A stretch of 64,000 nucleotides of DNA from Candidatus Eiseniibacteriota bacterium (GCA_963717505.1 OY970342.1:3168001-3232000); one strand, 5' to 3'. Shown: positions 5,763 to 41,358, counted from the stretch's first letter. A program made the numbers and translations. Notes: generated from the sequence alone by a model not told the origin.

Positions 5763-6168
5763 GCCGGATGTACGTGGCAGTCGACAGCGAGCGGCTGCCC
5801 TGGGCGTTCCAGGTCACGGTCACCGTGACTTTCTTGAGATTGTCCAACGGGGCCGCCAGCGTCTCGACCTCGTAGTACCGCTCCCAAGAGCCGCCTTCCA
5901 GCAATTCGTTGGTCGCGACCGGATGACGGCCATTCGTGAGTTCGGGATCCGACCAGGGAAGCTGCCGCAGACTCTCGAGCTTCTCCTGCGCGAACAGGTT
6001 GCCCGAAGTCATCATGCGGTCGCGGTTCTGGCCGCGCTGGCCGGCTGGGAACAGCTGGCCCACCATGAGGACGCCGATCGCCAGCATCATCAGCCCGACC
6101 ATCAGGTCGACCAATGATGCGCCGCGCTCGTTTCGGTCGTGACGGCGCGCGTGGGATGGAAGGCTCAC
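5758..6168 (-). CDS. PilV-like minor pilin
   Basis: GTG start at 6168 after AGGAGG; NERG|ASLVDLMVGLMMLAIGVL prepilin helix, AQEKLESLR, LKKVTVTVTW. Confidence 0.8.
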   Translation of the reverse strand: MSLPSHARRHDRNERGASLVDLMVGLMMLAIGVLMVGQLFPAGQRGQNRDRMMTSGNLFAQEKLESLRQLPWSDPELTNGRHPVATNELLEGGSWERYYEVETLAAPLDNLKKVTVTVTWNAQGSRSLSTATYIRR

Positions 6169-6534
6169 GGTGTACCTCCTGCGATCGGAACCGCCGGATC
6201 TCGTCCGGACCTGCTCCATGAGACATGGGTGCCGCCGCGGTTTCCCGGAACGAGACACCATGGCGGACAGGGCGTTGACCCTCATTGCACGGTCCGGGCC
6301 TGGGACGCTCCTGTGCCTTCGATCAGGAGTGTCGGCGAAGTCCCCCAACGGCTTGAGTGTTTATTCCCAACCGGCCCAGGCTCGCCGCGGCCCCGGAACT
6401 CGTGCGCGCCGCAATGTGATGCCGGGCGACACGCATACGCTCGCTTGCCGCCGGAACGGTCCCAAGTCATCTTGTCCGCGTCAGGTCGAGGCGAGAGCCA
6501 CGACGAGTCCCTGCGCCAAATCACCGGAGTTTCC

Positions 6535-9222
6535 ATGAAGGCATTGAAAATTGCCCTGATCGTATTCGTGGTCGTGGCTCTTCGGGCGGGTGGGTCGGCC
6601 GCCGCGGGGGCAAAGCCGCAGGCGGGTTCGGCTCCGGCCCTCCACCTGAAGACTCTTTCGCTGCGGCCCATCGGACCGGCCAACATGGGGGGACGGGTTT
6701 CGGATCTCGCGGTCCGCGCCGACCGGCCCTCTACATTCTATGTGGCCCTGGGCACCGGCGGTCTGATGAAGACCACGAACGCTGGCACCACGTGGAGCGC
6801 GGTGTTCGAGAAGGAGGCCGTGGCCTCGATCGGCGCCGTGGCTCTGTCGCCTCAGAACGCCTCCGTGGTCTGGGTCGGGACGGGCGAAGCCAACAGCCGG
6901 AACTCGTCGTCGTGGGGGAACGGCGTCTATCGCTCCGATGACGGAGGTGGAACCTGGCGGCACCTGGGACTCGAGGCGACCCACAACATCGCGCGCGTGG
7001 TGCCGGATCCCACCGACAGCAACGTCGTCCACGTCGCGGCCCTCGGGCGCCTGTGGGGCGAAGATCCCGAACGCGGCGTGTTTCGCACGACCGACGGCGG
7101 CCGCACGTGGAGCCACACGCTGCGCGCGGACGCGCGCACCGGCGCGTGCGACCTGGTGATGGCGCCCGACGATCCCACGACACTCTACGCGGCCTTGTAC
7201 ACCCGAAAGCGGACCCCTTGGTCCTATGAGTCCGGCAGCGAGACCGGCGGCATCTTCCGGTCGCGCGACCACGGGCGGACGTGGCAGAAGTTGGCCGGCG
7301 GCTTGCCCCGGCGCACCGGCCGCATCGGACTCGCGGTGTGCGCCGCGAGTCCGCGCTCGGTGTTCGCGGTGGTCGAGTCCGACGAGGGCGGCAACATCGA
7401 CGACTTCGAGTCCAAGAGTCGGGCGGGCGGCGTGTTCCGATCCGACGACAACGGCGAGACCTGGACGCGATTGTCGCCGCATACGCCCCGGCCTTTCTAC
7501 TTCAGCCAGATCCGGGTCCAACCGAACGACGATCGACGCGTCTACCTGCTCGGCTTCGACCTCTACGTGTCCGACGACGGCGGGCGCAGCTTCCGCGCCG
7601 GCGGTGCTCGCAACCTGCACCCCGATTTGCACGCCATGTGGATCCACCCCACCGACGGCGATCACATGCTGCTCGGCACCGACGGTGGCGTCTACCAGAC
7701 CTACGACCGCGGTCGCGCCTGGGACTTCCTCAACAACATGGCGGCCGGCGAGTTCTACAACATCGCGGTGGACCTCGGCGATCCTTACCGGATCTGCGGC
7801 GGGCTCCAGGACAATCAGGCCTGGTGCGGACCGAGCCGGACGCGGCTGAGCCGCGAGTCGTGGCTCGACGAGTCGTCGACCGAGCAGAACGCGATCCTGA
7901 ACGATCATTGGTTCTGCCTGGGCGGCGGCGACGGCTTCCACGTCGCGATCGATCCCGAGAATCCCGATCGCGTCTACCACGAATCACAGGGCGGCTACCT
8001 GATCCGCACCGATCTGGGGACCGGGGTGCGCCGCATGTTGCGGCCGTCGCCGAAGGAGGGGGAAGCGCGCTTCCGGTTCAACTGGAACACGCCGTTCTTG
8101 ATTTCGCCCCACGACCCGGCGGTGTTGTGGATGGGAGGGAACCACGTATTTCGCTTGTACGAGCGCGGCGAGCGCTGGCAGCGAGTCAGTCCGGACCTGA
8201 CCACGGCCGATCCCGTGAAGTCCTCGACGGTGGGCTCGAGCGCCGAAACCCATTGCACCATCACCACGCTCGACGAGTCGCCCAAGGTCGCGGGCCTCCT
8301 GTGGGTCGGTACCGACGACGGCAAGGTCTGGGTGTCGCGCGACTCCGGCGCGAAGTGGACCGATCTCACCAAGAATCTCAAGGTGCCCACCGGGCTGTAC
8401 GTCAGCCGGATCGTCGCGTCGCACCACGATGAAGCGACCGCGTACGTGTCGATCGACGGCCATCGCAGCGACCGCTTCGAGCCGTTCGTGCTGGTCACCC
8501 GCGACTACGGGCGCAGCTGGCGGTCGATCGCCGGGGATCTCCCCAAGGATGGGCCGGTCAAGGTGGTCCGGGAAGACTCCGCGAATCCCAAGCTGCTGTT
8601 CGCGGGGACCGAGTTCGGCCTGTTCGCGAGCCTCGATGATGGCGTCCACTGGGTTCGGCTCGACTCGGGGCTTCCGACGGTCGCGGTGGACGACCTGGTC
8701 ATCCACCCGCGGGAGCGCGACCTGGTGGTCGCCACCCACGGCCGCAGCCTGTACGTGCTCGATGACGTGAGCGGACTCGAGCAGTGGACCCCGGCCTGCC
8801 TCGAGCAGCCGGTCAGCTTCTTCGCCCCGCGACCGGCCACCGCCTATCACCTCGGCGTGCTGAGTGGTATCTGGGGTCAGAGGGCGTACGCAGGCAAGAA
8901 TCCGGCGTTCGGCGCTTACTTCAACTACTACGTGAAGGAGTTCAGCGGCGAAGGCGTCTCGATTGCGGTGCGCGACAGTGCCGGGGCAACGGTCCGGCGA
9001 CTCTCGGGCCCGGCGTCACCCGGATTCCAGCGCGTGGTCTGGGATCTACAGCCCGAAGCCCTGGAACGAATCGAGCGGCCGGAGTGGGCCGGTCAGCCGG
9101 CCTTCGTTCCAGCCGGGACCTATCGAGTCACGCTGAGCATGGGTTCGACGTCGGTCGAGCGAACGCTCGAGGTGCGGCACGCGCCCGGAGCCTCGGATCC
9201 CGATCGGCTCGCCAGTCCATGA
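6535..9222 (+). CDS. Secreted VPS10/sortilin-like BNR-repeat beta-propeller protein
   Basis: Signal peptide MKALKIALIVFVVVA; LRPIGPANMGGRV; many SxDGGxTW BNR repeats; GGLQDN, GGGDGF and ATHGRS motifs; Ig-like C-terminus. Confidence 0.85.
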   Translation: MKALKIALIVFVVVALRAGGSAAAGAKPQAGSAPALHLKTLSLRPIGPANMGGRVSDLAVRADRPSTFYVALGTGGLMKTTNAGTTWSAVFEKEAVASIGAVALSPQNASVVWVGTGEANSRNSSSWGNGVYRSDDGGGTWRHLGLEATHNIARVVPDPTDSNVVHVAALGRLWGEDPERGVFRTTDGGRTWSHTLRADARTGACDLVMAPDDPTTLYAALYTRKRTPWSYESGSETGGIFRSRDHGRTWQKLAGGLPRRTGRIGLAVCAASPRSVFAVVESDEGGNIDDFESKSRAGGVFRSDDNGETWTRLSPHTPRPFYFSQIRVQPNDDRRVYLLGFDLYVSDDGGRSFRAGGARNLHPDLHAMWIHPTDGDHMLLGTDGGVYQTYDRGRAWDFLNNMAAGEFYNIAVDLGDPYRICGGLQDNQAWCGPSRTRLSRESWLDESSTEQNAILNDHWFCLGGGDGFHVAIDPENPDRVYHESQGGYLIRTDLGTGVRRMLRPSPKEGEARFRFNWNTPFLISPHDPAVLWMGGNHVFRLYERGERWQRVSPDLTTADPVKSSTVGSSAETHCTITTLDESPKVAGLLWVGTDDGKVWVSRDSGAKWTDLTKNLKVPTGLYVSRIVASHHDEATAYVSIDGHRSDRFEPFVLVTRDYGRSWRSIAGDLPKDGPVKVVREDSANPKLLFAGTEFGLFASLDDGVHWVRLDSGLPTVAVDDLVIHPRERDLVVATHGRSLYVLDDVSGLEQWTPACLEQPVSFFAPRPATAYHLGVLSGIWGQRAYAGKNPAFGAYFNYYVKEFSGEGVSIAVRDSAGATVRRLSGPASPGFQRVVWDLQPEALERIERPEWAGQPAFVPAGTYRVTLSMGSTSVERTLEVRHAPGASDPDRLASP

Positions 9223-12216: not shown

Positions 12217-13730
12217 ATCACGACGCCCCGCAGGTTCCCCTGCGACTGTTGATTGAGCAGGGCGGCCCCGGGCACCGCGGCCCGGCGTTGCCCGCGTGCG
12301 ACGTGCCGGAGCGTCCGCTGGCCGAGCACCTGCCGGGGGTCGCGCTTCGCGAGGTACTCGCCCTGCCGCAGGTGTCCGAGCCCGAGGTGGTGCGTCACTT
12401 CATCCAGCTCTCGACGCTCAACCATCACATCGATCGCGGGTTCTACCCGCTCGGCTCGTGCACCATGAAGCACAATCCGAAGATCAACGACGAGATCGCG
12501 AGCCTGCCCGGCTTCGCACTCGCGCATCCGCTGGCCCCGGACCATGCGGTGCAGGGCGCTCTGCGCGTGATCCACGAGCTGGAGCGGACGCTGGCGGCGA
12601 TCACCGGCTTCAGTGCGGTGACCACGCAACCGGCGGCGGGAGCGCACGGCGAGATGACCGGCTTGATGATGATCCGGGCCTGGCATCGCTCGCGCGGCGA
12701 GGACGCACGGCGCCGCCGGGTCATTGTCCCCGACTCGGCGCACGGCACCAATCCGGCGAGCGTGAACTTGCTCGGCTGGGAAACGGTGACCATCGCCTCC
12801 GAGGAGCATGCGACGGTGAACCTCGACGAGCTGCGGAAGGCGCTCGACGACCGCACCGCTGCCGTGATGCTCACGGTGCCGAACACCCTCGGCCTGTTCG
12901 AGCCCCACATCCTCGAGGTCACGCGGATGGCCCACGAGGCCGGCGCCCAGGTCTACATGGATGGCGCGAATCTCAACGCACTGGTCGGAATCGTCCGGCC
13001 GGCGGATCTCGGCTTCGACGTCATGCACATCAACGTCCACAAGACCTTTTCGACGCCGCACGGTGGCGGCGGACCCGGAGCCGGTCCGGTGGCGGTCGCC
13101 GCGCACCTCGAACCCTTCCTGCCACGCCCCGTAGTGGTCGAGCGCGGCGGCACCTTCTCGCTCGACCACGACCGCCCGCACAGTATCGGGCGGGTGCACG
13201 GGTTCTTCGGGAACTTCGGAATCCTGGTCCGCGCGCTCACCTACATCCTCGGTCTCGGCCCCGAGGGCCTACAGCAGGTGAGTCGCGGCGCGATCTTGAA
13301 CGCCAACTACCTCATGCGACGCCTGGCGCGCACCTGGAACCTGCCGTACGCGGAACATTGCATGCACGAGTTCGTGCTCTCCGGACGCGGGCTGCGCAAG
13401 CACGGGGTCAAGACGCTCGACGTCGCGAAGCGGCTGCTCGATTTCGGCGTGCACGCGCCGACCGTGTACTTCCCGCTGATCGTCGAGGAAGCTCTGATGA
13501 TCGAGCCGACCGAGACCGAAACCCTGGACCGCCTCGACCACTTCGCCGCCGCGATGGAGCAGATCGCGCGCGAGGCCGTCGAGTCGCCGGCGACCCTGCA
13601 GCAGGCACCCTTCACGACTCCGGTCGACCGACTCGACGAGGGCCGCGCGGCCCGCGAACTGCGCCTGCGCTGGAACGTCCCGGGAGCCACGCCTTCTCCA
13701 TCGGCCGTGGAGACCGCCGTCCGCAAATGA
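12213..13730 (+). CDS. gcvPB: Glycine dehydrogenase (decarboxylating) subunit 2
   Basis: [46 protein letters not shown] (PLP Lys), MIEPTETE. Confidence 0.96.
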
Positions 13731-14149
13731 CTCCCGGGACGCTGGAGTGGACGTATCAGCCGTGGCGCGAATCTCCGGGGCGGGCGGCGATCGCGGCCGC
13801 ATTCACCGTGGGCTCGGCGGCCTGGTTGCTCGCCGCCTCGGGCTCGGCGGTGCTTACCGTGCTGATGTCGCTCGCGGTCGGGGCGCAGCTGGGGACGCTC
13901 CTGATCCCGACCCGTTGTCGGATCGACGGCGACGGCGTGCGTGCGCGTGGACCCTTCGGCTGGGAACGGCGGGCCTGGAGCGCGATCCGACGCGCCCACA
14001 TCGGGCCGGCGGGGCTCTGGGTGTCGCCTTTCGCCGCGCCTCGCCGGATGGATCGATTCCGTTCGCTGCTGTTGCCTCTGCCACGAGCGAAACGCGACGA
14101 CTTGCGGGCGGCACTCGGTCCGATCCTCTCCGAGCACGATCTGGGATGA
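13727..14149 (+). CDS. Small membrane protein of unknown function (two TM helices, PH-like soluble part)
   Basis: [15 protein letters not shown]..., hydrophobic N-terminal helices, W...VSPF...RMDRFR motif; ATGA-coupled to gcvPB and to the next gene. Confidence 0.7.
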
Positions 14150-14493
14150 CCAAGCCCGACGAGGTGCTCGACGAACAGGATCGGGCCCTGCTCGATCGCG
14201 TAGCGGCCCGCATCGTCGAGCTGCGGCTCGAGGTCCCGGCGATCCTGACGCTCGAAGGCAGCCGGCCGCTGACCGTGGTGGCCGGGCAGGCGATGATCTT
14301 CCTCGAACCGATCGTCCTGGCGTTGTTCCACTTCCCCGACTATCGCCGCTTCGCGCAGGCGATCGAGCGACGCGCGGCGCTCGACTACCTGATTCGCGGA
14401 ATCGAGACGCGCGCCGACGACGCGTTGGTGGCGCGCCGGGGTTCGCGAACCGCCGGCGGCAGCGAAGCCGGGCACGACCCGAGCGCGCGGTGA
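14146..14493 (+). CDS. Hypothetical protein
   Basis: [42 protein letters not shown]...; translationally coupled on both sides. Confidence 0.7.
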   Translation: MTKPDEVLDEQDRALLDRVAARIVELRLEVPAILTLEGSRPLTVVAGQAMIFLEPIVLALFHFPDYRRFAQAIERRAALDYLIRGIETRADDALVARRGSRTAGGSEAGHDPSAR

Positions 14494-16298
14494 CCCTCGA
14501 CCCGAGCCAGATTCATTCGATCCTCGCGACCGACTGCGGCTCGACCACGACCAAGGCGATCCTGGTCGAGCGCGGCCCGGAGGGTTTCCGCCTGGTGACG
14601 CGCGGCGAGGCCCCGACCACGGTCGAAGCCCCGTTCGAAGACGTCACGCGCGGCGTGCTCAACGCCGTACGCGAGGTCGAGGAGCTGGCCGGACGCCGAC
14701 TGCTCGACGGCGAGCGCATCATCACGCCGCGCCAGGGCGACGACGGCGTCGACCTCTACCTGTCGACCTCGAGCGCCGGTGGCGGACTCCAGATGATGGT
14801 CTCGGGCCTGGTGCTGCAGATGACCGGGGAGAGCGCCCAGCGCGCCGCCCTGGGAGCGGGAGCGATCGTCATGGACGTGATTGCGCTCAACGACGGCCGG
14901 CGTCCGTACGAGAAGATCCGCCGCCTTCGGCAGCTGCGTCCGGACATGATCCTGCTTTCCGGCGGCACCGATGGCGGCGACATCAAACGCGTCGCCGAAA
15001 TGGCGGAGATCCTGGTGGCAGCCGACCCCAAGGCGCGGCTCGGCGCCGGCTACGAGCTGCCGGTGATCTACGCGGGCAACCAGGAAGCCGCACCCATCGT
15101 GCGCGACTGCCTGGGCGGGCGCACGGCTCTCACCGTGGTGCCCAACCTGCGCCCGAGCCTCGAACACGAGAACCTGAAGCCGGCCCGCGACGCGATCCAC
15201 GAACTGTTCATGGAGCACGTCATGGCGCACGCGCCGGGGTACAAGAAGCTGATGACCTGGACGCCGGTGCCGATCATGCCGACCCCGGGTGCGGTCGGGC
15301 TGATCATCGAGAAGGTCGCCAAGCGCGACGGCATCGCCGTCGTCGGCGTCGACATCGGCGGCGCGACCACCGACGTGTTTTCGGTGTTCCAGGACGTGTT
15401 CAATCGGACGGTCTCGGCCAATCTCGGCATGAGCTATTCGGTGTCCAACGTGCTGGCGGAAACCGGCATCGAGAACGTGCTGCGCTGGGTGCCGTTCGCG
15501 GTCGACGAAGTCGAGCTGCGGAACCGGATCAAGAACAAGATGATCCGGCCGACGACGATTCCGCAGTCGCTCGAAGACCTGGTGATCGAACAGGCCATCG
15601 CGCGCGAGGCCCTGCGCCTGGCGTTCGAGCAGCACAAGGCGCTCGCGGTCGGGCTCAAGGGGGTCCAGACCGAACGAACGATCTCGGACATCATGCACCA
15701 GTCGGCGAGCGGCAGCTCGCTGGTCAACCTCATGGACCTCGGTCTGCTGGTCGGATCGGGCGGCGTGCTGTCGCACGCGCCGCGCCGCGCCCAGGCCGCT
15801 CTGATGATGATCGATGCGTTCCTGCCGGAGGGCCTCACCCATCTCGCGGTCGACAGCATTTTCATGGCGCCTCAGCTCGGCATCATGTCGACGGTGCACG
15901 AGGAGGCGGCGACCCAGGTGTTCGAGCGCGATTGCCTGATCCGACTGGGCGCGGTGCTGGCGCCGGTCGGCGGCGGCAAGGAGGGCCAGGCCTGCCTCCG
16001 GATCGAACTCGAAGCACCCGCTCTCGAGCGCATCGAGCGATCGATCCCGTTCGGCCAGTTGGTGATGCTGCCGCTGCCGACTCAGGGCACGGCGCGGCTG
16101 ACCGCGACCCCGGAGCGCGGTTTCGATCTCGGCGCCGGGCGCGGCAAGTCGTTGCTCGCCGAGGTGCGCGCCGGGGTGTGCGGACTGATCGTCGACACGC
16201 GGGGCCGGCAACCCTTCCACCTGCCGTCGGACGCCAGTCGCATTCCCAAGCTGCGCCTGTGGAACCAGGCGCTCGGCGCGTACCCGCGCGAGGTGTGA
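14490..16298 (+). CDS. GlmL/MutL-family (glutamate mutase L-like) ASKHA ATPase-fold protein
   Basis: Phosphate-1 motif TDCGSTTTK, APTTVE, SSAGGGL, LSGGTDGG, MPTPGAV, phosphate-2 motif VDIGGATTDVFS, RTVSANLGMSYS, GSGGVLSHAP. Confidence 0.88.
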   Translation: MTLDPSQIHSILATDCGSTTTKAILVERGPEGFRLVTRGEAPTTVEAPFEDVTRGVLNAVREVEELAGRRLLDGERIITPRQGDDGVDLYLSTSSAGGGLQMMVSGLVLQMTGESAQRAALGAGAIVMDVIALNDGRRPYEKIRRLRQLRPDMILLSGGTDGGDIKRVAEMAEILVAADPKARLGAGYELPVIYAGNQEAAPIVRDCLGGRTALTVVPNLRPSLEHENLKPARDAIHELFMEHVMAHAPGYKKLMTWTPVPIMPTPGAVGLIIEKVAKRDGIAVVGVDIGGATTDVFSVFQDVFNRTVSANLGMSYSVSNVLAETGIENVLRWVPFAVDEVELRNRIKNKMIRPTTIPQSLEDLVIEQAIAREALRLAFEQHKALAVGLKGVQTERTISDIMHQSASGSSLVNLMDLGLLVGSGGVLSHAPRRAQAALMMIDAFLPEGLTHLAVDSIFMAPQLGIMSTVHEEAATQVFERDCLIRLGAVLAPVGGGKEGQACLRIELEAPALERIERSIPFGQLVMLPLPTQGTARLTATPERGFDLGAGRGKSLLAEVRAGVCGLIVDTRGRQPFHLPSDASRIPKLRLWNQALGAYPREV

Positions 16299-16302
16299 CG
16301 CC

Positions 16303-17427
16303 GTGGCCCACGCCTACACTCCCGGATTGCGCGTCACCGGACGCACGGTGGTGCGCCGCGAGCGCCGGCTCCCGCTCAAGGGGTCGGTGGTGGTGGCGCC
16401 GCGTCAGTCGGTGAACGCCGACACGGTGGTCGCGCGCACCGAGCTGCCGGGAAACATCCACACCGTGAACCTGGCCGCCAAGTTGTCGATCGATCCCGCG
16501 CAGGCGGCGAGTTCACTCACCCGGCCGATCGGTTCGGCGGTGCGCAAGGGCGAGGAGATCGCGGCGGCGCGGAGCCTGTTCGGATTGATGCGCAATGCCG
16601 CCGCCGCCCCGGTCGCGGGTACGCTCGAGAGCGTTTCGTCGGTGACCGGACAGCTCATCGTGCGTGAGCCACCGATTCCGGTCGAGGTCCAGGCCTATGT
16701 CCGCGGCATCGTGGCCGAGGTCCTGCCCGAGGAAGGGGTCGTCGTCGAGTCGAATGCCGCGCTGCTGCAGGGAATTTTCGGCGTCGGCGGCGAGACGTTC
16801 GGGCCGATTGCGATCGCGGCGACCTCGACGTCCCAGCCACTGGAGCGTGACCAGCTGCGTCCCGAGCATCGCGGGTGCGTCGTGGTCGGTGGCGCGCACG
16901 TTTCGCACTCGGTGCTCCTGCATGCCCGAGATCTGGGGGTGGCCGCGGTGGTGGTCGGCGGTTTCGACGACCGCGACCTGCGCGAACTGCTCGGCCGCGA
17001 CCTGGGGGTCGCGATCACCGGGTCCGAAGACCTCGGGATCACTCTGGTGCTCACCGAGGGCTTTGGCCACATTCCAATGGCGGATCGCACCTGGCGCCTG
17101 CTGAACGAGCATACGGGGCGGACCGCGTCGGTCAGCGGCGCGACCCAGATCCGAGCGGGCGTCCTGCGCCCGGAGATCCTGATTCCGCTCGATTCCTCGA
17201 GTGTCGTCGGCGTCGAGGCGGGACAATCGACCGGTCTCGAGATCGGATCCCTGATCCGGGCCATTCGACAGCCGTATTTCGGTCGCATCGCGAGCGTCGT
17301 CGAGCTGCCCGCCGAACTCCAGGCGCTCGACTCCGAAGCGCAGGTCCGCGTCCTGGTCGCCGAGTTCGCGGACGACCAGACTCGGGCGCTGATCCCCCGC
17401 GCCAACGTGGAGTTGATCGCGTCGTGA
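16303..17427 (+). CDS. Conserved hypothetical protein with barrel-sandwich (lipoyl-like) domain and C-terminal KOW/SH3-like domain
   Basis: MAHAYTPGL start; GSAVRKGEEIA...APVAGTLESVS; QGIFGVGGE; LTEGFG; TQIRAGVLRPE; GSLIRAIRQPYFGRIASV...IPRANVE. Confidence 0.8.
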   Translation: MAHAYTPGLRVTGRTVVRRERRLPLKGSVVVAPRQSVNADTVVARTELPGNIHTVNLAAKLSIDPAQAASSLTRPIGSAVRKGEEIAAARSLFGLMRNAAAAPVAGTLESVSSVTGQLIVREPPIPVEVQAYVRGIVAEVLPEEGVVVESNAALLQGIFGVGGETFGPIAIAATSTSQPLERDQLRPEHRGCVVVGGAHVSHSVLLHARDLGVAAVVVGGFDDRDLRELLGRDLGVAITGSEDLGITLVLTEGFGHIPMADRTWRLLNEHTGRTASVSGATQIRAGVLRPEILIPLDSSSVVGVEAGQSTGLEIGSLIRAIRQPYFGRIASVVELPAELQALDSEAQVRVLVAEFADDQTRALIPRANVELIAS

Positions 17428-17474
17428 ACCACGATCGCCTGGTCGTCATGCCGCCGGCGTTCGGTCCATTTCCG

Positions 17475-17504
17475 TTGACAGACTGCAACGGCCGCTGCTA
17501 CGGT
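17475..17504 (+). promoter_or_regulatory. Putative internal sigma70 promoter for the membrane genes
   Basis: TTGACA-N18-TACGGT with an extended -10 TG, in the 142-bp gap before the FN3-DUF6754 gene. Confidence 0.55.
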
Positions 17505-17569
17505 GCCGCGCGATCGTGCCGGGGATACCAGGCACGATTTTGCTTTTCGCCGCAGCCCGACGTCGAGGA

Positions 17570-18783
17570 ATGACGATGCGAGTCGCATCCCAGCGGTCGA
17601 GGAAGCCAGGGGAGCAGGGTCGCGGGGCGTGCGTGTTGCTGGGCATCCTCCTGTTCGCGGCGAGCGCCTGGGCGCAGGAGTCCCCGGGTCCGGCGAGTTC
17701 CACGCCGCCGGCTCCGCCCAGCAACCTGACGGTGGTCGATCCGCCGAACGACGCCGGCCGCTCCCTGGTTCTGAACTGGACACCCTCCGCCGACGACGGC
17801 ACCCCCGGCGTCAAGGGGTATCAATTGCATCGCGCGAAGGATCCGGGCGGACCCTGGGATCTGGTCGATTCCGTCAATGCCGGGGTCGCCACCTACACCG
17901 ATCAAAGCGTGAAACGGGATATCGACTACTTCTACCGGGTGACGGCCACCGGCCCCTTCGGCCTGGTGCCTGCGCGCAGCGTCACCGGCCCGGTCCGCGC
18001 CGAAGCCGCAGTGGTACAACGATGGCCGGACCAGCGTACTGATCGGCCTGATCCTGTTCTTCGCGTTCGTCCTCTACTTCATCGCCAGCGCCCAGGCTGG
18101 GACGAAACCGTTCGTGCGCCGGATCGCGGGCATCGACGCGATCGAGGAGGCGATCGGGCGCGCCACCGAGATGGGCCGCTCGGTGCTCTACATCCCGGGC
18201 ATTCTCGACATCGACGACATCCAGACGGTCGCGGGACTGGTGATCCTCGAGAACGTCGCCAAGATCACGGCCCGCTACGAGACGCCGATCACCGTGCCGG
18301 TCACCTATCCGATCCCGTTCACGATCGCCGAGGAGATGGTCAAAGCCGGGTACCTGCAGGCCGGAAAGCCCGACCAGTACGACCCGAACAGCGTGCGCTT
18401 CATCTCGCCCGAGCAGTTCGCTTACGTCGCCGCGGTGACCGGCATCATGATGCGCGACAAGCCGGCCGCCCACATCTTCATGGGCGCGTTCTACGCCGAG
18501 TCGCTGTTGCTCGCCGAGACCGGCTTCGCGAACGGCGCCATCCAGGTGGCCGGGCACGGCCAACGTCCACCAGCTTCCGTTCTTCGTCGTCGCCTGCGAC
18601 TACACGCTGATCGGCGAGGAGCTGTACGCGGCCAGCGCCTACCTGTCCGGCGACCCCAAGCTGGTCGGCGGGCTCAAGGGCGCCGACCTGATGAAGATCG
18701 TGATCATCCTGGCGGTGTTCGTCGGCTGCGTCCTCGAGACCATGCACATCACGGCGTTCACCAAGTTGATGGAGACCCGGTGA
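17570..18783 (+). CDS. Fibronectin type III + DUF6754 membrane protein (apparent frameshifts near 18010 and 18555)
   Basis: Signal peptide, FN3 (PPAPPSNLTV...LNWTPS...YFYRVTA), TM, then RRIAGIDAIEEAIGRATEMG, GAFYAESLLLAETG, QLPFFVVACDYTLIGEELYAASAYL across three frames; TGA at 18781. Confidence 0.8.
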
Positions 18784-18790
18784 GGGCGGC

Positions 18791-19457
18791 ATGAAGCGCG
18801 AGATTCCGCTCCTGCTGACCGCGGTGCATCGGGCTGTTCATGATCCTGTCGTTCTTCGTGCCCCACCACGTCGGTCAGCGTTCCGGCGGACTTCCTGCAG
18901 GCGACGGCGATCATCGTGGTGGCGTTCGGCTACGTCCTGGGCGGCGCGAATGCGCTGCGCGTCAACCTCGACGCGATCGACAAGCGCCAGCCGGGCTGGC
19001 TCTACAAGGTCGTGCTGGTGGTGGCGCTGCTCGCCACGGTGGTCATCGGCTTCATCGACGGCGTCTCGCGCCAGGGCGGCTTCCTCAACGAGGGCATCGC
19101 AGTCGAAGTGGATCTACGACCGTCTCTACTCGCCGATGGCAGTCGACGATGTTCTCGCTGCTCGCGTTCTTCATCGCCTCGGCGGCGTTCCGCGCGTTCC
19201 GCATCCGCACGGTCGAGGCCGGCCTGCTCGCGGTCGCCGCGCTGATCGTCATGCTCGGCCGCGTGCCGGTCGGCGACGTGATGAGCGGGGCCCTGCCCGA
19301 GTGGCTGCGTCTGGGCGCGATGCAGGACTGGATCATGAACGTGCCGCAGAACGCGGCGAAGCGCGCGATCCTGATCGGCGCCGCGCTGGGCGTGATGGCG
19401 ACCGGCCTGCGCGTGATCCTCGGCATCGAGCGCTCGTACCTGAGCGGGGAGGACTGA
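18791..19457 (+). CDS. Conserved multi-pass membrane protein (frameshifted)
   Basis: MKREIPLLLT...; STMFSLLAFFIASAAFRAFRIRTVEA; MLGRVP; AAKRAILIGAALG...LRVILGIER, assembled across frames. Confidence 0.78.
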
Positions 19458-19458
19458 C

Positions 19459-20289
19459 GTGAACCTGCCGCTCGAGAACCTCGACCGCCGCTGGATCTTC
19501 CTGATCATGGGGGTGCTGGTGCTGCTGGCCCGCTGCTCTTCCCGCTGTCGCTGCCGCTCATCGTCTCGCCGCCGGTCCACGGCTTCCGGCGACGCGATCG
19601 ATCGCAGTCCCGAACGGCTCGACCGTGCTGCATGTCGTGCGACTACGACCCGGGCGCGATTCCCGAGATGGTGCCGATGACCCGGACCGCGCTCCGGCAC
19701 CTGCTGTCGAAGGACTGCAAGGTGGTGATGACCGTGCTGTGGAACGGCGGGCCGGGCCTGGTCGACAGCGTCACCCGCGAGGTGGCGCGCGAGTTCCCGG
19801 GCAAGACCTACGGCGTGGACTGGGTCAACCTCGGCTACAAGGCCGGCAACGAGGCGGTGATGGTGGTGATGGGCCAGGGCATCGCCAACGCGTTCCCGCG
19901 CGACTACCGCGGCAACGAGACCCGCACGCTGCCGATCATGGCGCAACGTGCGCGACTACTCGAGCTTCCCGCTGCTCGTGAACATCTCGTCCGGCTATCC
20001 CGGCACCAAGGAGTGGGTGCAGCAGGTGCAGGCGCGCTTCCACCTGCCGATGGTCGCGGGCTGTCACCGCGGTCAGCGCGCCCGAGTACTACCCCTATCT
20101 GCAGTCGGGCCAGCTGCTCGGCCTGCTGGGCGGCATGGCCGGCGCCGCCGAGTACGAGAAGGCGCGCGGCGAGAAGGGCACGGCGACCGAGGGCATGGAC
20201 GCCCAGTCGCTGGCGCACATCTTCGTGGCCATCTGCATCGTGCTCGGCAACGTGGTTCGCCGCGGCCAGAAGCGAGAGGCGTCGCATGA
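19459..20289 (+). CDS. Conserved membrane-anchored protein (frameshifted; end approximate)
   Basis: LDRRWIFLIM TM; SCDYDPGAIPEM; YGVDWVNLGYKAG; GQLLGLLGGMAGAAEYE; MDAQSLAH...LGN C-terminal TM. Confidence 0.75.
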
Positions 20290-20986
20290 ACGTGCATCCG
20301 GCGACATCGGCGTCTGGATCGCCGCGCTGCTGACGCTGTGCATCTTCAGCTTCCTGTACAAGGACAATCCGTTCTACAAGTTCGCCGAGCATCTGTTCGT
20401 CGGCGTCTCGGCCGGCTACTTCATCATCCTCAACTTCTGGACGGTGATCGTCCCCAACCTGGTGCGAGCCGCTGTGCCGCCATCGTTCGGACGCGGCGCG
20501 GGCGGTGCACCGCCGGCCGACCGCCCGGCATGTTCGCCGCCGGAGCTCGGCGACTATCGCGGCTGCCTGCTGATCCCGGCGTTGCTCGGCGTGCTGCTGT
20601 TCACGCGTCTGTTCGGCAAGCATCGGCTGGCTGTCGCGCTGGTCGCTGGCGGTGATCATCGGCGTCTACGCCGGGATCAAGACCACCGGATTCGCGCAGG
20701 GCGACTTCGTCGCGCAGGTGCAGGCGAGCCTGCAGCCGCTGTGGATCCGGCGACCCGTGGCGATACGTTCAACGCGATCGTGTTCACGGTCGGACTGATC
20801 ACGTCGCTGCTGTTCTTCTTCTTCAGCCGCGAGCACAAGGGCGCACTCGGCGTCGCCTCGCGGGTCGGCATCGTCTTCCTGATGATCGGGTTCGGCGCCG
20901 GCTACGGCTACACGGTGATGTCGCGCATCTCGCTGCTCATCGGGCGGTTCCAGTTCCTGCTCGAGACCTGGCTGGGCCTGGGCTGA
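20286..20986 (+). CDS. Conserved multi-pass membrane protein (frameshifted)
   Basis: GVWIAALLTLCIFSFLYKDNPFYKFAEHLFVGVSAGY...FLMIGFGAGYGYTVMSRISLLIGR. Confidence 0.8.
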
Positions 20987-21029
20987 CGGTCGCCCCGCCC
21001 GCACCCACGCGGGCACGCGTCGCGCCGGC

Positions 21030-21771
21030 CTCACTTCTCTGGTGCGACGCGACGCGCCGGCCGCGTCCACATGCGAGCGCGACGCGCGGCTGCTCGAAGC
21101 CGCCGAGGCCGACTCGGGTTGCGGCGCCGGTCCTGCGGCTCTTTCGCTTCCGCCCGCGCGGGCATCACCCTTGGGCGTGCGCAGGATCCTGATGCGCACG
21201 CTCGACCTTGGCCGCTGCGCCGCCGACGGGATCGCGTGGGCGGTGCGGCCCACCGGCGGACGCGCCATCTTCCACGACGAGGAGTGGACCTACTCGTTCA
21301 CCGCGCGTCGCGACGACCCGGAGTGGGGCGGCATCGCTCGACGAACGGCTACGCAGCGAATCGCGAGCTGGATCGTCGGCTCACTCGTGCGACTCGGCGT
21401 CCCCGCCGAGATCGCCGCGAGCGCGGCGCGAGCGTACGCGGTCGCACGCGGCGCGACCGTGTTTCGCCTCCACCACTCGACACGAGATCGTGCTCGACGG
21501 GCGCAAGCTGGTCGGCAGCGCGCAACGGCGTGCGGCGTCGGCCTGCTTCAGCAGGGAAGCCTGCTGCTCGGGCCGGGCCACGCCCGGCTCGCCGACTACC
21601 TGCCGCTCGACCTCGAGGCGCGTGTCGCGAACGCGTCGTCGGCTCGAGCTGCAGGCCACCGATGCCGCGCGGTATCTCGGCGTCGATCCGCCGCTCGAAC
21701 GGTGGGCGGCCGCGCTCGCCGCGTCGCTTCCCGGCGTTCGTCGATTCAAGACGCTGCCCGCGGCCCGATGA
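21030..21771 (+). CDS. Lipoate-protein ligase / octanoyltransferase (LipM/LplA family; frameshifted, start approximate)
   Basis: RPTGGRAIFHDEEWTYS, PCFAST...EIVLDGRKLVGSAQRR and LLQQGSLLLG, spread over two frames. Confidence 0.82.
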
Positions 21772-21801
21772 TTGACCGGCCCGGAAAGCCGCTCCTATAC
21801 T
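21772..21801 (+). promoter_or_regulatory. Putative sigma70 promoter of the peptide ABC operon
   Basis: TTGACC-N18-TATACT, 48 bp upstream of the GTG start. Confidence 0.6.
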
Positions 21802-21849
21802 GCGCGTTCGCGCCCTTGCGCCGACCCACGCTCGCTGCGGAGGAATCAC

Positions 21850-23688
21850 GTGAGTTCGACCCGGATCCGGTGGCTACGGGCGGGGGCCGCCCTGCTCGCG
21901 TGCTGTGTTTTGACGCTCCCGCTCGCGAGTTGCGGGGGCACCGCTTCCCAGGCGCGCGTCCGCTATCAGGATCCGCATCCACTCCCCGCCGACACACTGC
22001 TTCTACCCATGGCGGACGTCGGGCAATACGGCGGGCGCTTCGTCATCGGACAGACCAATCCGCCCAAGACGTTCAACGGGATCATGGCCAACGAGACGTC
22101 GTCGACCGACATCATCGACCGAATGTTCACCACGCTGGTCGGTTTCGACTACCCGAGCGAGACGTTGTATCCGCTGCTGGCGAAGTCCTGGGAACTCAGG
22201 GCGGACGGCCTGACCTGGACGTTTCACCTGCGCGACGGCGCCGCGCTTCTCCGACGGAGCACCCGATCACCTCGGCCGACGTCCTGTTCTCGTTCGAGGT
22301 GTCGTACGACGAAACGCTGCACCCCTCGATCCAGGACCTGATCAAGTCCGACGGGCAAGCGGTTCCAGGTCGAGGCCCCGGATTCCCGCACCGTGGTGAT
22401 CCGCACGCCGATCCCCAACTCGGTCCTGCCGGAGATCATGACTTCACTGCGGATCATGCCCAAGCACCAGCTCGAGGCCGCCTTCCGCTCCGGCGACTTC
22501 GCGTCGGCCTACAGCGTCAGCACCGCGCCCGAGAGCATCGTCACCAGCCACGCCTGGCGGCTCAAGCAGTACGTGCCCGGGCAGAAGACCGTGCTCGAGC
22601 GCAATCCGTACTGGTTCGGTGTCGACGCGAAGGGGCAGCGCCTGCCCTATCTGGACGAGCTGGTCTACCTGATCGTCCCCGACCAGAACACCGCGGCGCT
22701 CAAATTCCAGTCGGGCGAGCTGGATGCCCTCGACAACGTCAAGCCCGAGGACTACACGACCTTCGACGACGGTGCGGCGGCGGGCGACTACACCGTGCAC
22801 GATCTGGGTCCGGCCCTCACCACGAACTTCCTCTGGTTCAACCTCAATCGGGTGCGCGAGCCGGCCGCCGGCAAGCGGGTCGGCACTCCGCAGGTCGGCG
22901 CGGTCAAGTACGCCTGGTTCAGCGACGCGCGCTTCCGCCGCGCCGTGTCGAAGGCCATCGACCGCGAAGCCATCATCCGCGGGCCGTTCTTCGGCCACGC
23001 CGTCAAGAACTGGAGCCAGGCGACGCCGGGGAACCGCACCTGGTACACGCCCGACATCGTGCATTGGGACCACGATCCCGAGGGCGCCCGGCAGCTGCTC
23101 GCCGAGATCGGTTACCGCGACCGGAACGGCGACGGCGTCGTCGAGGACGGCGACGGCAACGCGGTGAGCTTCACGCTCAAATCGAACGGCGACAACGCCA
23201 TCCGCGTCGGGATCATGAACCTGGTGCGCGACGACCTGGCTGAAGTCGGAATCCGTTGCGTGCCGACGCCGCAGGACTTCAACACCCTGATCACCAATTT
23301 CCGCCAGGACTTCCAATACGAGGCCGGACTGCTGGGGCTCCAGAGCGGCACGCCGCCGGATCCCGGCCAGGCCCAGAACGTCTGGATGTCGAGCGGCCTG
23401 ACGCACTACTGGAACATCCGTCAGCCGCGCCCGGAGACCGAGTCCGAGGCGAAGGTGGATGCGCTCATGGACTCGCTGACCTCGAATCCGAACCTGGCGC
23501 GGCGCAAGGAGCTGTGGCGCGACATCCAGAACCTGGTCAACCAGGAGTCTTTCATCGTCTGGCTCCCGGTGCTCAAGGTGCGGATTCCGATCCGCAACCG
23601 GTTTGGAAACGTCGAGCCGAGCGTGATGGCGCACCGGATTCTGTGGAACATCGAGCGCGTCTACCTCAAGACGCGCATGCCGGCGTGA
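21850..23688 (+). CDS. Peptide ABC transporter substrate-binding lipoprotein, family 5 (frameshifts about 22245-22370)
   Basis: Lipobox LASC; PKTFN; PLLAKSW; WTFHLR; LERNPYWF; LPYLDE; FRRAVSKAIDR. Confidence 0.9.
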
Positions 23689-39551: not shown

Positions 39552-41358
39552 ATGCTGGACACGACCGAACGCACCCTCAACCCCGTCGTGGAGACTCCGC
39601 GCCGGGCACCCGCCCCCCCTGCCATCCTCAATCTCGAAGAGGACGATGACGAGGCCGCTCAAGCGGCCCGCGCCGAGATGTTCGGCCAGTACGAGGAATC
39701 CCTCCGATCCATCGGCGAAGGCGAGATCGTGCGCGGCACGGTGCTCGCGGTCGACGACAAGGAGGTCCTCGTCGACGTCGGCTTCAAGAGCGAAGGCGTC
39801 ATCTCGCTCTCGGAGTTCCCGGACCCGGCCAGCATCAAGGTCGGCGACTCCAGATCGACGTCTTCCTCGAGAAGATGGAGAACCAGGACGGCCTGGTCGT
39901 CCTCTCCAAGCAGCGCGCCGACTTCGTGCGCGTCTGGGATCGCGTCAAGGACGCGCACGACAGCGGGCAGGTGGTCGAGGGCAAGTTGGTCCGCAAGATC
40001 AAGGGCGGCGTGGTCGTGGATCTCTACGGAGTCGAGGCGTTCCTGCCCGGCTCCCAGATCGCGCTGCGCCAGGTCCAGAACGTGGACGCCCTGCTCGGCC
40101 AGAACGTTTCGGTCAAGATCATCAAGCTGAACAAGCGCCGCCGCAACATCGTGGTCTCGCGCCGCGCCGTCCTCGAAGAGGAGCGCGACCGGATGAAGTC
40201 CACGATCCTCAAGGATCTGGCGAAGGACCAGATCCGCGAAGGCCAGGTCAAGAACATCACCGACTTCGGCGCGTTCGTGGACCTCGGCGGCATCGACGGC
40301 CTGCTGCACATCACCGACATGTCGTGGGGCCGCGATCGCGCATCCCTCGGAGATGGTCAAGATCGGCGACCGCGTCCGGGTCAAGGTGCTCAACTTCGAT
40401 CCCGAGAAGGAGCGCATCTCGCTCGGCTTGAAGCAGCTCGAGCCCTACCCGTGGGACGGCGTCGAGGACAAGTACAAGGTCGGCGATCGCGTCACGCGGA
40501 CGCGTGGTGTCGATCACCGACTACGGCGCATTCGTCGAGCTGGAGAAGGGCGTCGAGGGCCTGGTGCACGTGTCCGAGATGTCGTGGACGCGTCACGTTC
40601 GCCATCCGTCCAAGGTGGTCAACATCGGCGACGTCATCGAGGCGGTGGTGCTCAAGGTCGACGCGGCCAACGAGAAGATCTCGCTCGGGTTGAAGCAGAT
40701 CGAGCCCGATCCGTGGCTGACGCTCGACGAGAAGTACCCGACCGGCATGCGCGTCCAGGGCAAGGTGCGCAATCTGACCAACTTCGGCGCGTTCGTCGAG
40801 CTCGAAGAGGGGATCGACGGGCTGGTGCACGTCTCCGACATGTCGTGGACCAAGCGGGTCGCGCATCCGAGCGAAGTGCTCAAGAAGAACGACTCGGTCG
40901 AGGTCGTGATCCTGTCGATCGACAAGGAGCACCGGCGCATCAGCCTGGGGCTCAAGCAGGTCAGCGAGGATCCGTGGCCGCGCCTGGCCGACCGCTTCCC
41001 GTCGGGCATGGTGCTTTCCGGCGCGGTGAATCGCCTGTTCGATCGCGGCGCGATCGTGGACGTCGGCGACGGCATCGAGGGTTTCATTCCGCTCTCGCAG
41101 CTCGGGATCGACGACCTCAAGCGCCCGACCGACGCCTTCGAGGTCGGCGAGGAGCAGACCATGAAGGTGACGCGCGTGGACATTCCGAACCACCGGCTGG
41201 TGTTGAGCGTCAAGGCCTGGCTTTCCGACCAGGACGACATCGCGCTCGCCGAGTGGACCTCCAAGCGCAATCAGGTTCGGGCCAAGATCGCGGCCAATCC
41301 GCCGGCGGACGATGCGGCGAAAGCCAAGACCAAGGAGAACGTGCCCGAAGACGAGTAA
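39552..41358 (+). CDS. rpsA: 30S ribosomal protein S1 (frameshifts near 39850, 40335 and 40497)
   Basis: Six S1 repeats: DVGFKSEG, AFLPGSQI, FGAFVDLGGIDGLLH, GVEGLVHVSEMSW, GIDGLVHVSDMSW, GIEGFIPLSQL. Confidence 0.95.

Follow-up and report, generated by a model that had tools for sequence, protein, structure and literature searches.

Eight closely packed genes, here called g1 to g8, lie in a 64,000-nucleotide stretch of DNA from Candidatus Eiseniibacteriota bacterium (GCA_963717505.1 OY970342.1:3168001-3232000; this whole stretch is referred to as the window, and positions are given in its coordinates throughout). These genes are the window genome's sole copy of a widespread, undescribed system, which consists of a repeatable four-gene membrane cassette (g5 to g8, headed by a protein with the domain DUF6754) and a usually single-copy group, g2-g3-g4, that includes an ATPase of the ASKHA fold (g3). 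Judged by sequence comparison, the gene set is conserved far beyond chance, with its order intact in relatives and with dozens of loci in other phyla. The sequence-only reading had proposed that an ASKHA-fold ATPase and membrane proteins make up a multi-subunit set of six core families in one operon; synteny and co-occurrence bore out that such a set is conserved, but its unit proved to be the cassette plus the separate g2-g3-g4 group rather than a single operon.

The region has a G+C content of 68%, and true reading frames were therefore taken from the G+C content of third codon positions (GC3) and from comparison with relatives, among them the relative G013. The features, from the last glycine-cleavage gene to a lipoate-protein ligase gene, are as follows:

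12270..13730, + strand: gcvPB, glycine dehydrogenase subunit 2 (PF21478 and PF02347; unbroken tblastn match to the G013 orthologue).
13727..14149, + strand: g1, two transmembrane (TM) segments and a bacterial PH domain (PF10756).
14146..14493, + strand: g2, small helical protein belonging to no family.
14490..16298, + strand: g3, GlmL/MutL-family ASKHA-fold ATPase of 602 aa (PF13941).
16303..17427, + strand: g4, three-domain cytoplasmic partner of g3, 374 aa.
~17570..18783, + strand: g5, signal peptide, weak fn3 match and DUF6754 (PF20539); frameshifted.
18791..19457, + strand: g6, polytopic membrane protein of ~216 aa, placed by tblastn and GC3; frameshifted.
19459..~20290, + strand: g7, TM helix, alpha/beta domain, TM helix; frameshifted, its end and the junction with g8 being approximate.
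~20291..20986, + strand: g8, polytopic membrane protein of ~227 aa; frameshifted.
~21042..21771, + strand: LplA-type lipoate-protein ligase gene (PF21948); start approximate, frameshifted.

The eight genes thus occupy 13727-20986, on the + strand between gcvPB and the ligase gene, and their co-directional, close packing from gcvPB onward is as it was first read. Overlaps of 4 nt were found at gcvPB/g1, g1/g2 and g2/g3, and gaps were 4 nt for g3/g4, 7 nt for g5/g6 and 1 nt for g6/g7, with larger ones at g4/g5 (~140 nt) and g8/lplA (~55 nt).

To describe the distribution of the system, we searched 1.84 billion cluster representatives (clusters at 50% identity) with the DUF6754 domain at E <= 0.001, and found it in 2225 clusters, 840 of them at E <= 1e-30. 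The domain was always C-terminal, behind N-termini of very varied length; 24 diverse members were 47-59% identical to the query and shared 33 invariant positions. In a collection of species-representative genomes, a DUF6754 relative was encoded in 625 of 632 candidate stretches. The best 80 of these 632 stretches gave the 79 loci on which all locus counts below are based, and iterated g1-g8 profiles were built from them. The loci were labelled Eisenbacteria, Zixibacteria, Ignavibacteria, WOR-3, Cloacimonadota, Poribacteria, Stahlbacteria, Coatesbacteria, Edwardsbacteria, Dormibacterota and Gimesia, with one each from Bacillota and Deltaproteobacteria.

These 79 loci contained 103 DUF6754 genes, 89 of which had at least 2.3 kb of downstream DNA; g6, g7 and g8 then followed on the same strand in all but one case (88 out of 89). 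Together with the matched presence in Planctomycetota described below, this confirmed the earlier expectation that the families co-occur across phyla. Tandem cassettes were also observed, with at least two in 13 of the 79 loci and three in 7. Whole loci from the same family as the window genome (L011-L016), as well as further Eisenbacteria loci of sufficient length, carried all eight genes unbroken and in unchanged order; in L011-L016, lplA lay downstream and gcvPB just upstream in most, not being detected in L014. The window genome itself has one DUF6754 locus. In one Ignavibacteria locus (L044:11423-13712), genes for a DNA methylase, an MjaI-type restriction endonuclease and a STAS-domain protein were observed between g6 and g7 of the cassette.

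In 21 of the 79 loci, the g3-g4 pair immediately preceded the first cassette. Five complete genomes had a cassette locus without the pair; g4 was nevertheless found in all five, with one copy per genome (E 1e-163 to 1e-173), PF13941 was found once in four of them, and the DUF6754 copies numbered 6, 5, 6 (with a further partial match), 1 and 1, respectively. Five further genomes from other phyla had one full-length g4 each, in several frame pieces in one of them. Overall, g4 was a single full-length copy in all ten genomes checked, including those in which it is far from the cassettes. Where g4 stands alone, its surroundings in four complete genomes shared nothing recurrent.

Co-inheritance was assessed in an even sample of 121 Planctomycetota genomes, which are related, so that the numbers are not independent counts. 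DUF6754 was present in 33 genomes, g4 in 32 and g3 in 31, and 87 had none of the three; the 31 genomes with g3 were exactly the 31 that held both g4 and DUF6754. The exceptions were two DUF6754-only genomes, with matches on short contigs, and a g4-only genome, with a fragment at a contig end. From this exact three-way overlap, g3, g4 and DUF6754 have, on the evidence of gene content, clearly been gained and lost together. In the window genome's own order (31 genomes), 27 genomes had g3 matches and 26 had DUF6754 matches, each tally counting one unpublished genome, G020. Four genomes, which are 90-95% complete, had neither, and the sole g3-only genome has a contig that ends inside g4. Some Planctomycetota genomes also carry a second, divergent full set.

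Natural fusions of g3 and g4 were widespread. Among 72 proteins of 663-2000 aa that matched the g4 profile at E <= 1e-10, 71 also carried PF13941, and 49 of these 71 fusions covered at least 98% of g4 in chains of ~990-1005 aa. An apparent fusion of g4 with g5 (P0295) was rejected as a probable read-through miscall, since the g5 signal peptide sits in the middle of the chain. A distant paralogous pair, g3'-g4', was also observed (L112:11847-14825; L113:5390-8322; G052, G063, G087 and G123), fused as a 993-aa protein in a Cloacimonadota genome; it adjoins GT4 glycosyltransferase or acyl-CoA dehydrogenase genes, with no DUF6754 cassette beside it.

The g3 protein is a member of the Pfam family PF13941 (MutL; E 2.8e-123, 412.5 bits versus a cut-off of 27), as is its G013 orthologue (414.1 bits), which is 82% identical to it; across phyla, g3 identity was 59-73%. 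The motifs DCGSTTTK (residues 15-22) and DIGGATTD (288-295), which we take to be the phosphate-1 and phosphate-2 motifs of the ASKHA fold, were invariant in 15 sequences from several phyla. The protein resembles GlmL/MutL and Or-4 proteins (PF13941; NF040745, NF040744, TIGR01319) in its full-length PF13941 match and in these two phosphate-binding motifs. It differs from them in that the G013 orthologue scored below the NCBIfam cut-offs (210.7, 203.8 and 155.2 bits versus 475, 600 and 204.05 for NF040745, NF040744 and TIGR01319, respectively), in a conserved C-terminal extension of ~120 aa past the Pfam model, and in travelling with g4 and DUF6754 membrane cassettes. GlmL, an accessory protein, lies in glutamate mutase operons, and Or-4 is found in ornithine degradation; the neighbours of g3 are g2 and g4 instead of glmS and glmE, the locus has no B12 mutase gene, and the single-contig window genome, which is 86.7% complete by marker genes, gave no match to PF06368 (glutamate mutase E subunit). 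The label of GlmL/MutL-family ATPase given by the sequence-only reading therefore stands at the level of the Pfam family and the ASKHA motifs, but not at that of any GlmL or Or-4 equivalog or subfamily. A search of PDB sequences with g3 found nothing.

The g1 protein matched PF10756 (bPH_6; E 5.8e-06, 26.7 bits versus a cut-off of 22), with a hydrophobic stretch at residues 31-79 of an orthologue, and the gene is a lineage-restricted accessory, occurring mainly in gcv-linked loci. The g2 protein, a soluble helical protein of ~115 aa that belongs to no Pfam or NCBIfam family, is usually encoded immediately before g3, and its profile matched the gene preceding g3 in several phyla (L081, L082, L090, L098, L102 and L112).

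The structure of g4 was modelled (predicted local distance difference test, pLDDT, 86; predicted template modelling score, pTM, 0.67) and appeared as three domains, for which fold matches are given as Z values from a tool whose own stated background is Z 7-8. Domain 1 (residues 49-123) is a barrel-sandwich hybrid (RnfC 8ahx_C, Z 7.4, root-mean-square deviation 2.8, 65 aligned; NqrA 4u9o_A, Z 7.2). Domain 2 (residues 134/152-297) is a swivelling beta/beta/alpha domain, with matches to enzyme I of the phosphotransferase system (PTS; 2wqd_A, Z 9.0, root-mean-square deviation 2.8, 107 aligned), RraA (3c8o_A, Z 9.0), rifampin phosphotransferase (5hv1_A, Z 8.9) and the pyruvate kinase C-domain (8.2). 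Domain 3 (residues 310-374) is a KOW/SH3-like barrel (Z ~8). As these values are near background, they describe folds and not kinship.

Domain 1 is like RnfC and NqrA in fold, but g4 lacks the Fe-S and nucleotide-binding parts of RnfC, and neither g4 nor g5-g8 had a Pfam or NCBIfam match to RnfC_N, NQRA, SLBB or the membrane partners RnfD/A/E/G at E <= 0.05. Domain 2 is like PEP (phosphoenolpyruvate)-utilising enzymes (PTS enzyme I, PPDK, rifampin phosphotransferase) in fold, whereas the g4 family lacks their conserved phosphohistidine: g4 had no match to PF00391 (the mobile domain of these enzymes) at E <= 0.05, and H202 of G013 g4, which by eye lies on the phosphohistidine motif, is at a position that varies across the family alignment. 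A PDB profile search with g4 gave only a weak KOW-like match. The earlier description of g4 as a protein with a lipoyl-like domain has to be given up as far as function is concerned: the lipoyl likeness is one of fold only and g4 is not a lipoyl carrier, the match to Biotin_lipoyl (PF00364) being below cut-off (17.7 bits versus 22.1), the invariant and near-invariant columns of the hairpin (residues 77-119, 20 sequences) containing no lysine, and the fold having three domains.

In the membrane cassette, g5 comprises a signal peptide, a presumably periplasmic FN3-like head, a TM helix, a Rossmann-like DUF6754 domain and a second TM helix. The pieces of g5 in the window matched PF20539 at E 5.8e-72 (242.4 bits) and 2.1e-30 (106.1 bits), and an intact orthologue at E 7.1e-114 (379.7 bits), so that g5 is a full member of DUF6754, a Pfam family with no described function. 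The first description of g5 as an FN3-DUF6754 protein held firmly for the second half of the name; the fn3 match, at 18.6 bits, was under its cut-off of 25. A model of the orthologous DUF6754 domain (pLDDT 89.8, pTM 0.81) showed a seven-stranded Rossmann-like domain flanked by two TM helices, and fold searches (Foldseek, VIA-align) returned generic Rossmann-like folds, including sirtuins, MurG, RCK/KTN and transhydrogenase dIII (Z 8.7-10.1). The domain is predicted to face the cytoplasm, on the basis of the g5 signal peptide, the FN3 head before the TM helix, and basic residues (K/R) after the first helix. The g7 protein has a TM helix, an alpha/beta domain of ~210 aa and a second TM helix, with a conserved DRR before the first helix and an R after the second; by the positive-inside rule, its domain is probably periplasmic.

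The heads of g5 proteins were diverse. Among 30 long DUF6754 proteins, four had fn3 and seven BamB/PQQ-like propellers, and others resembled nothing known. In the third cassette of a triple locus (L080:14719-16491), the g6 position was occupied by a 591-aa protein with FG-GAP repeats, which indicates that g6, like g5, can bear a periplasmic head. No Pfam, NCBIfam, PADLOC or PDB sequence-profile match was found for g6, g7 or g8; g7 matched only unnamed Atlas clusters, a PDB profile search with g5 found nothing, and profile-profile comparison detected no paralogy of g5 with g7 or of g6 with g8. When g4 was modelled in complex with the cytoplasmic DUF6754 domain, the score was 0.00, which counts neither for nor against binding. 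As had been anticipated, no known complex was matched in Pfam, NCBIfam, PADLOC (no defence family), PDB sequences, or fold searches with the g4 and DUF6754 models, and no paper in the library searched named DUF6754, PF20539 or PF13941, the titles there on GlmL or ASKHA being unrelated.

From these data, we propose that g5-g8 form a four-protein inner-membrane module, in which g5 would contribute a variable periplasmic head and the near-invariant cytoplasmic DUF6754 domain, g7 a domain between two TM helices, and g6 and g8 the polytopic subunits. The cytoplasmic part consists of the ASKHA ATPase g3, the three-domain g4 and the small g2, with g3 and g4 working as one unit that would bind and hydrolyse ATP. 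This unit may dock on the invariant cytoplasmic DUF6754 domain and drive or gate one or several g5-g8 modules, whose differing periplasmic heads might select a substrate or cargo or make a contact. In Eisenbacteria, the set was inserted, with the lineage-specific g1, between gcvPB and lplA. We give about even credence to this reading as a whole, namely a shared g3-g4 ATP engine serving g5-g8 membrane modules, a merely local insertion into the gcv operon, and frameshifts that are errors. The more specific suggestion that the system is a true ATP-driven transporter or translocase, with an ASKHA-powered g3-g4 engine and interchangeable four-subunit modules, is a tentative one.

Transport systems with a shared energiser offer a parallel: in the PTS, enzyme I and HPr work with several enzymes II, and one MsiK-type ATPase serves several permeases of the ATP-binding cassette (ABC) type. 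Alike is that the single g3/g4 set of a genome goes with 1-6 cassettes, which in some cases are encoded far from it; unlike in PTS and ABC systems, the energiser has an ASKHA fold, and no sequence or fold relation to those systems was found.

Several observations weigh against the shared-engine reading. The searches found no transporter, pump or secretion system homologous to the set, with g6, g7 and g8 matching nothing, and GlmL relatives are considered chaperone-like helpers and not motors. The list of fold matches to DUF6754 is flat and generic, so that no ligand can be named, and the best match of the g4 middle domain, at Z 9.0, exceeds the tool's background by little. Lone DUF6754 genes were observed, one in L083 and another in L025, and PF13941 was not found in G032, the fifth of the complete genomes mentioned above. 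Lastly, the frameshifts in the window are clustered (none in 9.3-17.9 kb versus at least 12 in 17.9-21.8 kb), a pattern that local decay could produce.

An alternative that we consider rather unlikely, and that starts from the same family membership of g3 in PF13941 (GlmL/MutL), is that g3-g4 would be a chaperone-like assembly, repair or regulatory factor for g5-g8, in the manner proposed for EutA, DdrA-type and GlmL proteins with their enzymes, while the module itself would use another source of energy, such as ion gradients. The service of 1-6 cassettes by one g3/g4 set, possibly encoded far off, fits a trans-acting factor, and the folds that DUF6754 resembles include, among many Rossmann folds, regulatory nucleotide-binding domains (RCK/KTN). 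However, strict co-inheritance, the 59-73% identity across phyla and the g3-g4 fusions fit a stoichiometric subunit at least as well; moreover, g3 falls under the GlmL and Or-4 cut-offs of NCBIfam, and no B12 mutase was found in the window genome.

By analogy with actin-fold platforms (PilM-PilNO, FtsA or MreB-RodZ), g3 might instead polymerise or act as a scaffold, with g5-g8 as anchors whose heads would touch partners in the wall or outer membrane; such a structural or positioning platform seems improbable to us. The ASKHA fold of g3, its weak, sub-threshold match to MreB-like_C (E 0.041), and the bitopic or TM-domain-TM subunits with periplasmic protein-binding modules (fn3, BamB-like and FG-GAP propellers) agree with it. 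In PilM-PilN-PilO and FtsA platforms, the comparison drawn in the sequence-only reading, the gene for an actin-fold protein of the cytoplasm likewise accompanies genes for bitopic membrane proteins. Nevertheless, g3 is nearest to the hydantoinase/GlmL branch and not to PilM, FtsA or MreB, to which matches were weak and sub-threshold only; no PilM, PilN, PilO or FtsA match was found at E <= 0.05, and g4 and g5-g8 have no counterpart in those platforms. These data contain no sign of polymerisation, and repeated cassettes with one g3 would be unusual for a cytoskeletal anchor.

Proteins conserved at 50-70% identity from one phylum to another tend to be core machinery, but this set has no name and no solved structure. 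Environmental phyla carry the system frequently: 2225 sequence clusters were found, and species-representative genomes contain at least 625 loci. The lack of any DUF6754 match in the 14 model genomes used as controls may explain why it has been neglected. If the system is an ATP-driven membrane device with exchangeable heads, envelope transport would gain a new principle, and bacteria of soil, sediment and sea would prove to have a major function that annotation has missed. The known primary active membrane machines would then be joined by another kind, common in Eisenbacteria, Zixibacteria, Ignavibacteria, Planctomycetota and further phyla that have received little study. The full g2-g8 set was found in a locus labelled uncultured Gimesia sp. 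(L102), and Gimesia has cultured members; this locus and the natural g3-g4 fusions could make the system testable. For annotation, the label 'glutamate mutase L' for g3, and the label 'fibronectin type III domain-containing protein', which NCBI often gives to DUF6754 proteins, are misleading. New for DUF6754 are its likely cytoplasmic, Rossmann-like nature, its fixed g6-g8 partners and its inheritance together with g3/g4. Also added here are the gcv-lplA context in Eisenbacteria, evidence that the frameshifts are errors, the exact three-way count in Planctomycetota, the widespread g3-g4 fusion and the anatomy of g4.

Upstream of g1, the glycine-cleavage genes gcvT, gcvH, gcvPA and gcvPB were identified with Pfam. 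The ligase gene downstream was represented in the window by one piece just above the PF21948 cut-off (27.5 bits versus 27); its intact orthologue matched PF21948 (E 3.1e-25, 89.8 bits) and PF03099 (E 2.8e-13, 50.4 bits) and thus has the LplA/LipB catalytic domain. The order gcvPB-g1...g8-lplA was kept in the readable relatives of the same family and in 10 of the 79 loci, all gcv-linked and Eisenbacteria-like; outside such loci, there were no gcv or lplA flanks, and the set had other neighbours or its parts were dispersed over the genome. A general link to amino-acid catabolism, as the sequence-only reading had supposed, was therefore not upheld. The placement in the gcv operon is a lineage-specific insertion and gives no clue to the general function, since it is absent elsewhere and the presence of LplA is explained by GcvH. 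Within Eisenbacteria, the overlapping start and stop codons from gcvPB through g3 suggest that the set from gcvPB to lplA is probably co-transcribed.

It could be argued that the Eisenbacteria module serves its own operon by taking up glycine, peptides or lipoate for LplA, and the order conserved in relatives and ten further loci, the overlaps from gcvPB through g3, and the two SBP_bac_5 (peptide-type) binding-protein genes downstream of lplA would all fit such a role. Terminator-like signals inside the gene run, in agreement with it, showed no excess, the counts of the promoter and terminator scan being equal to those of shuffled sequence. We regard this role as very doubtful, as beyond the lineage the set has varied or dispersed contexts without gcv or lplA neighbours, g4 has no lipoylatable lysine, and the binding-protein genes possibly form a separate unit. 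The last point comes from the sole sigma-70-like promoter match in 9-26 kb, located after lplA and before the first SBP_bac_5 gene (21772-21801, 10 out of 12 positions), the number of matches being that of shuffled sequence.

A different context was observed in Zixibacteria and Ignavibacteria loci (L041, L044, L049, L050, L054, L063, L092, L097, L105 and L025), where a head-less cassette lies in a conserved co-directional block composed of obg, dprA, HPr (ptsH), enzyme I (ptsI), a SIS/PGI-like gene, g5-g8, an NTP-transferase gene, metK and ahcY, with gaps between enzyme I, the SIS gene and g5 that were mostly below 100 nt and reached ~310 nt. A phosphotransfer link between this head-less cassette and the PTS genes is conceivable from the gene order. 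This PTS link is a candidate at most, and the block was treated as local synteny: it also contains obg, dprA, metK and ahcY, and the enzyme I gene of the window genome is elsewhere. A gene that looked like enzyme I after triple cassettes was found to be PPDK.

The frameshifts noted in the sequence-only reading are real in the sequence. At least 12 frame changes in total were located by GC3 and tblastn (two in g5, two in g6, at least three in g7, two in g8 and at least three in lplA), whereas the reading frames of g1-g4 and the gcv genes were unbroken. Those in g5 lie at ~17985-18025 and ~18553, the latter being one surplus G in a G run relative to the G013 orthologue. The pieces of the broken genes were 54-84% identical to the orthologue, without stop-rich decay. 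When sampled words of 17400-22400 were compared with seven sequencing runs, the word shares were at most 0.07 in all seven.

Frame breaks were then surveyed with 175 open frames from 220 kb of the relative G013 against 464 kb of the window genome around the window, and frame-broken orthologues were found scattered in patches elsewhere in the 464 kb. These included rpsA (ribosomal protein S1; 39552-41289), an essential gene, which was split into four collinear pieces in three frames by three frameshifts, with up to 92% identity to the G013 orthologue. Other frame-broken genes were observed near 26.4-27.6 kb, at 31-33 kb, and ~8 kb and 79 kb before the window, and the first SBP_bac_5 gene after lplA (21772-23688) also changes frame, near 22.2-22.4 kb. 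For the frameshifts in g5-g8 and lplA, assembly error is the most likely origin, as suggested by the broken rpsA, the patchy breaks elsewhere, and a genome that, as a single contig, reaches a marker-gene completeness of only 86.7%. That g5-g8 and lplA are instead decaying pseudogenes, with a module no longer functional in the window genome, is highly improbable despite the contrast with the intact g1-g4 and gcv genes, given the frameshifts in rpsA and in other patches of the same sequence, the homopolymer-length nature of one shift, the identity of the pieces to the orthologue, and the single open DUF6754 copy retained in all 25 relatives that scored over the cut-off.

Further upstream in the window, a gene for a 1027-aa protein with BNR/Sortilin-Vps10 repeats (6139-9222) lies between a kbl-like gene (~259-1464) and gcvT. 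In G013, the kbl-like gene directly precedes gcvT, which indicates that ~8 kb were inserted in the window genome.

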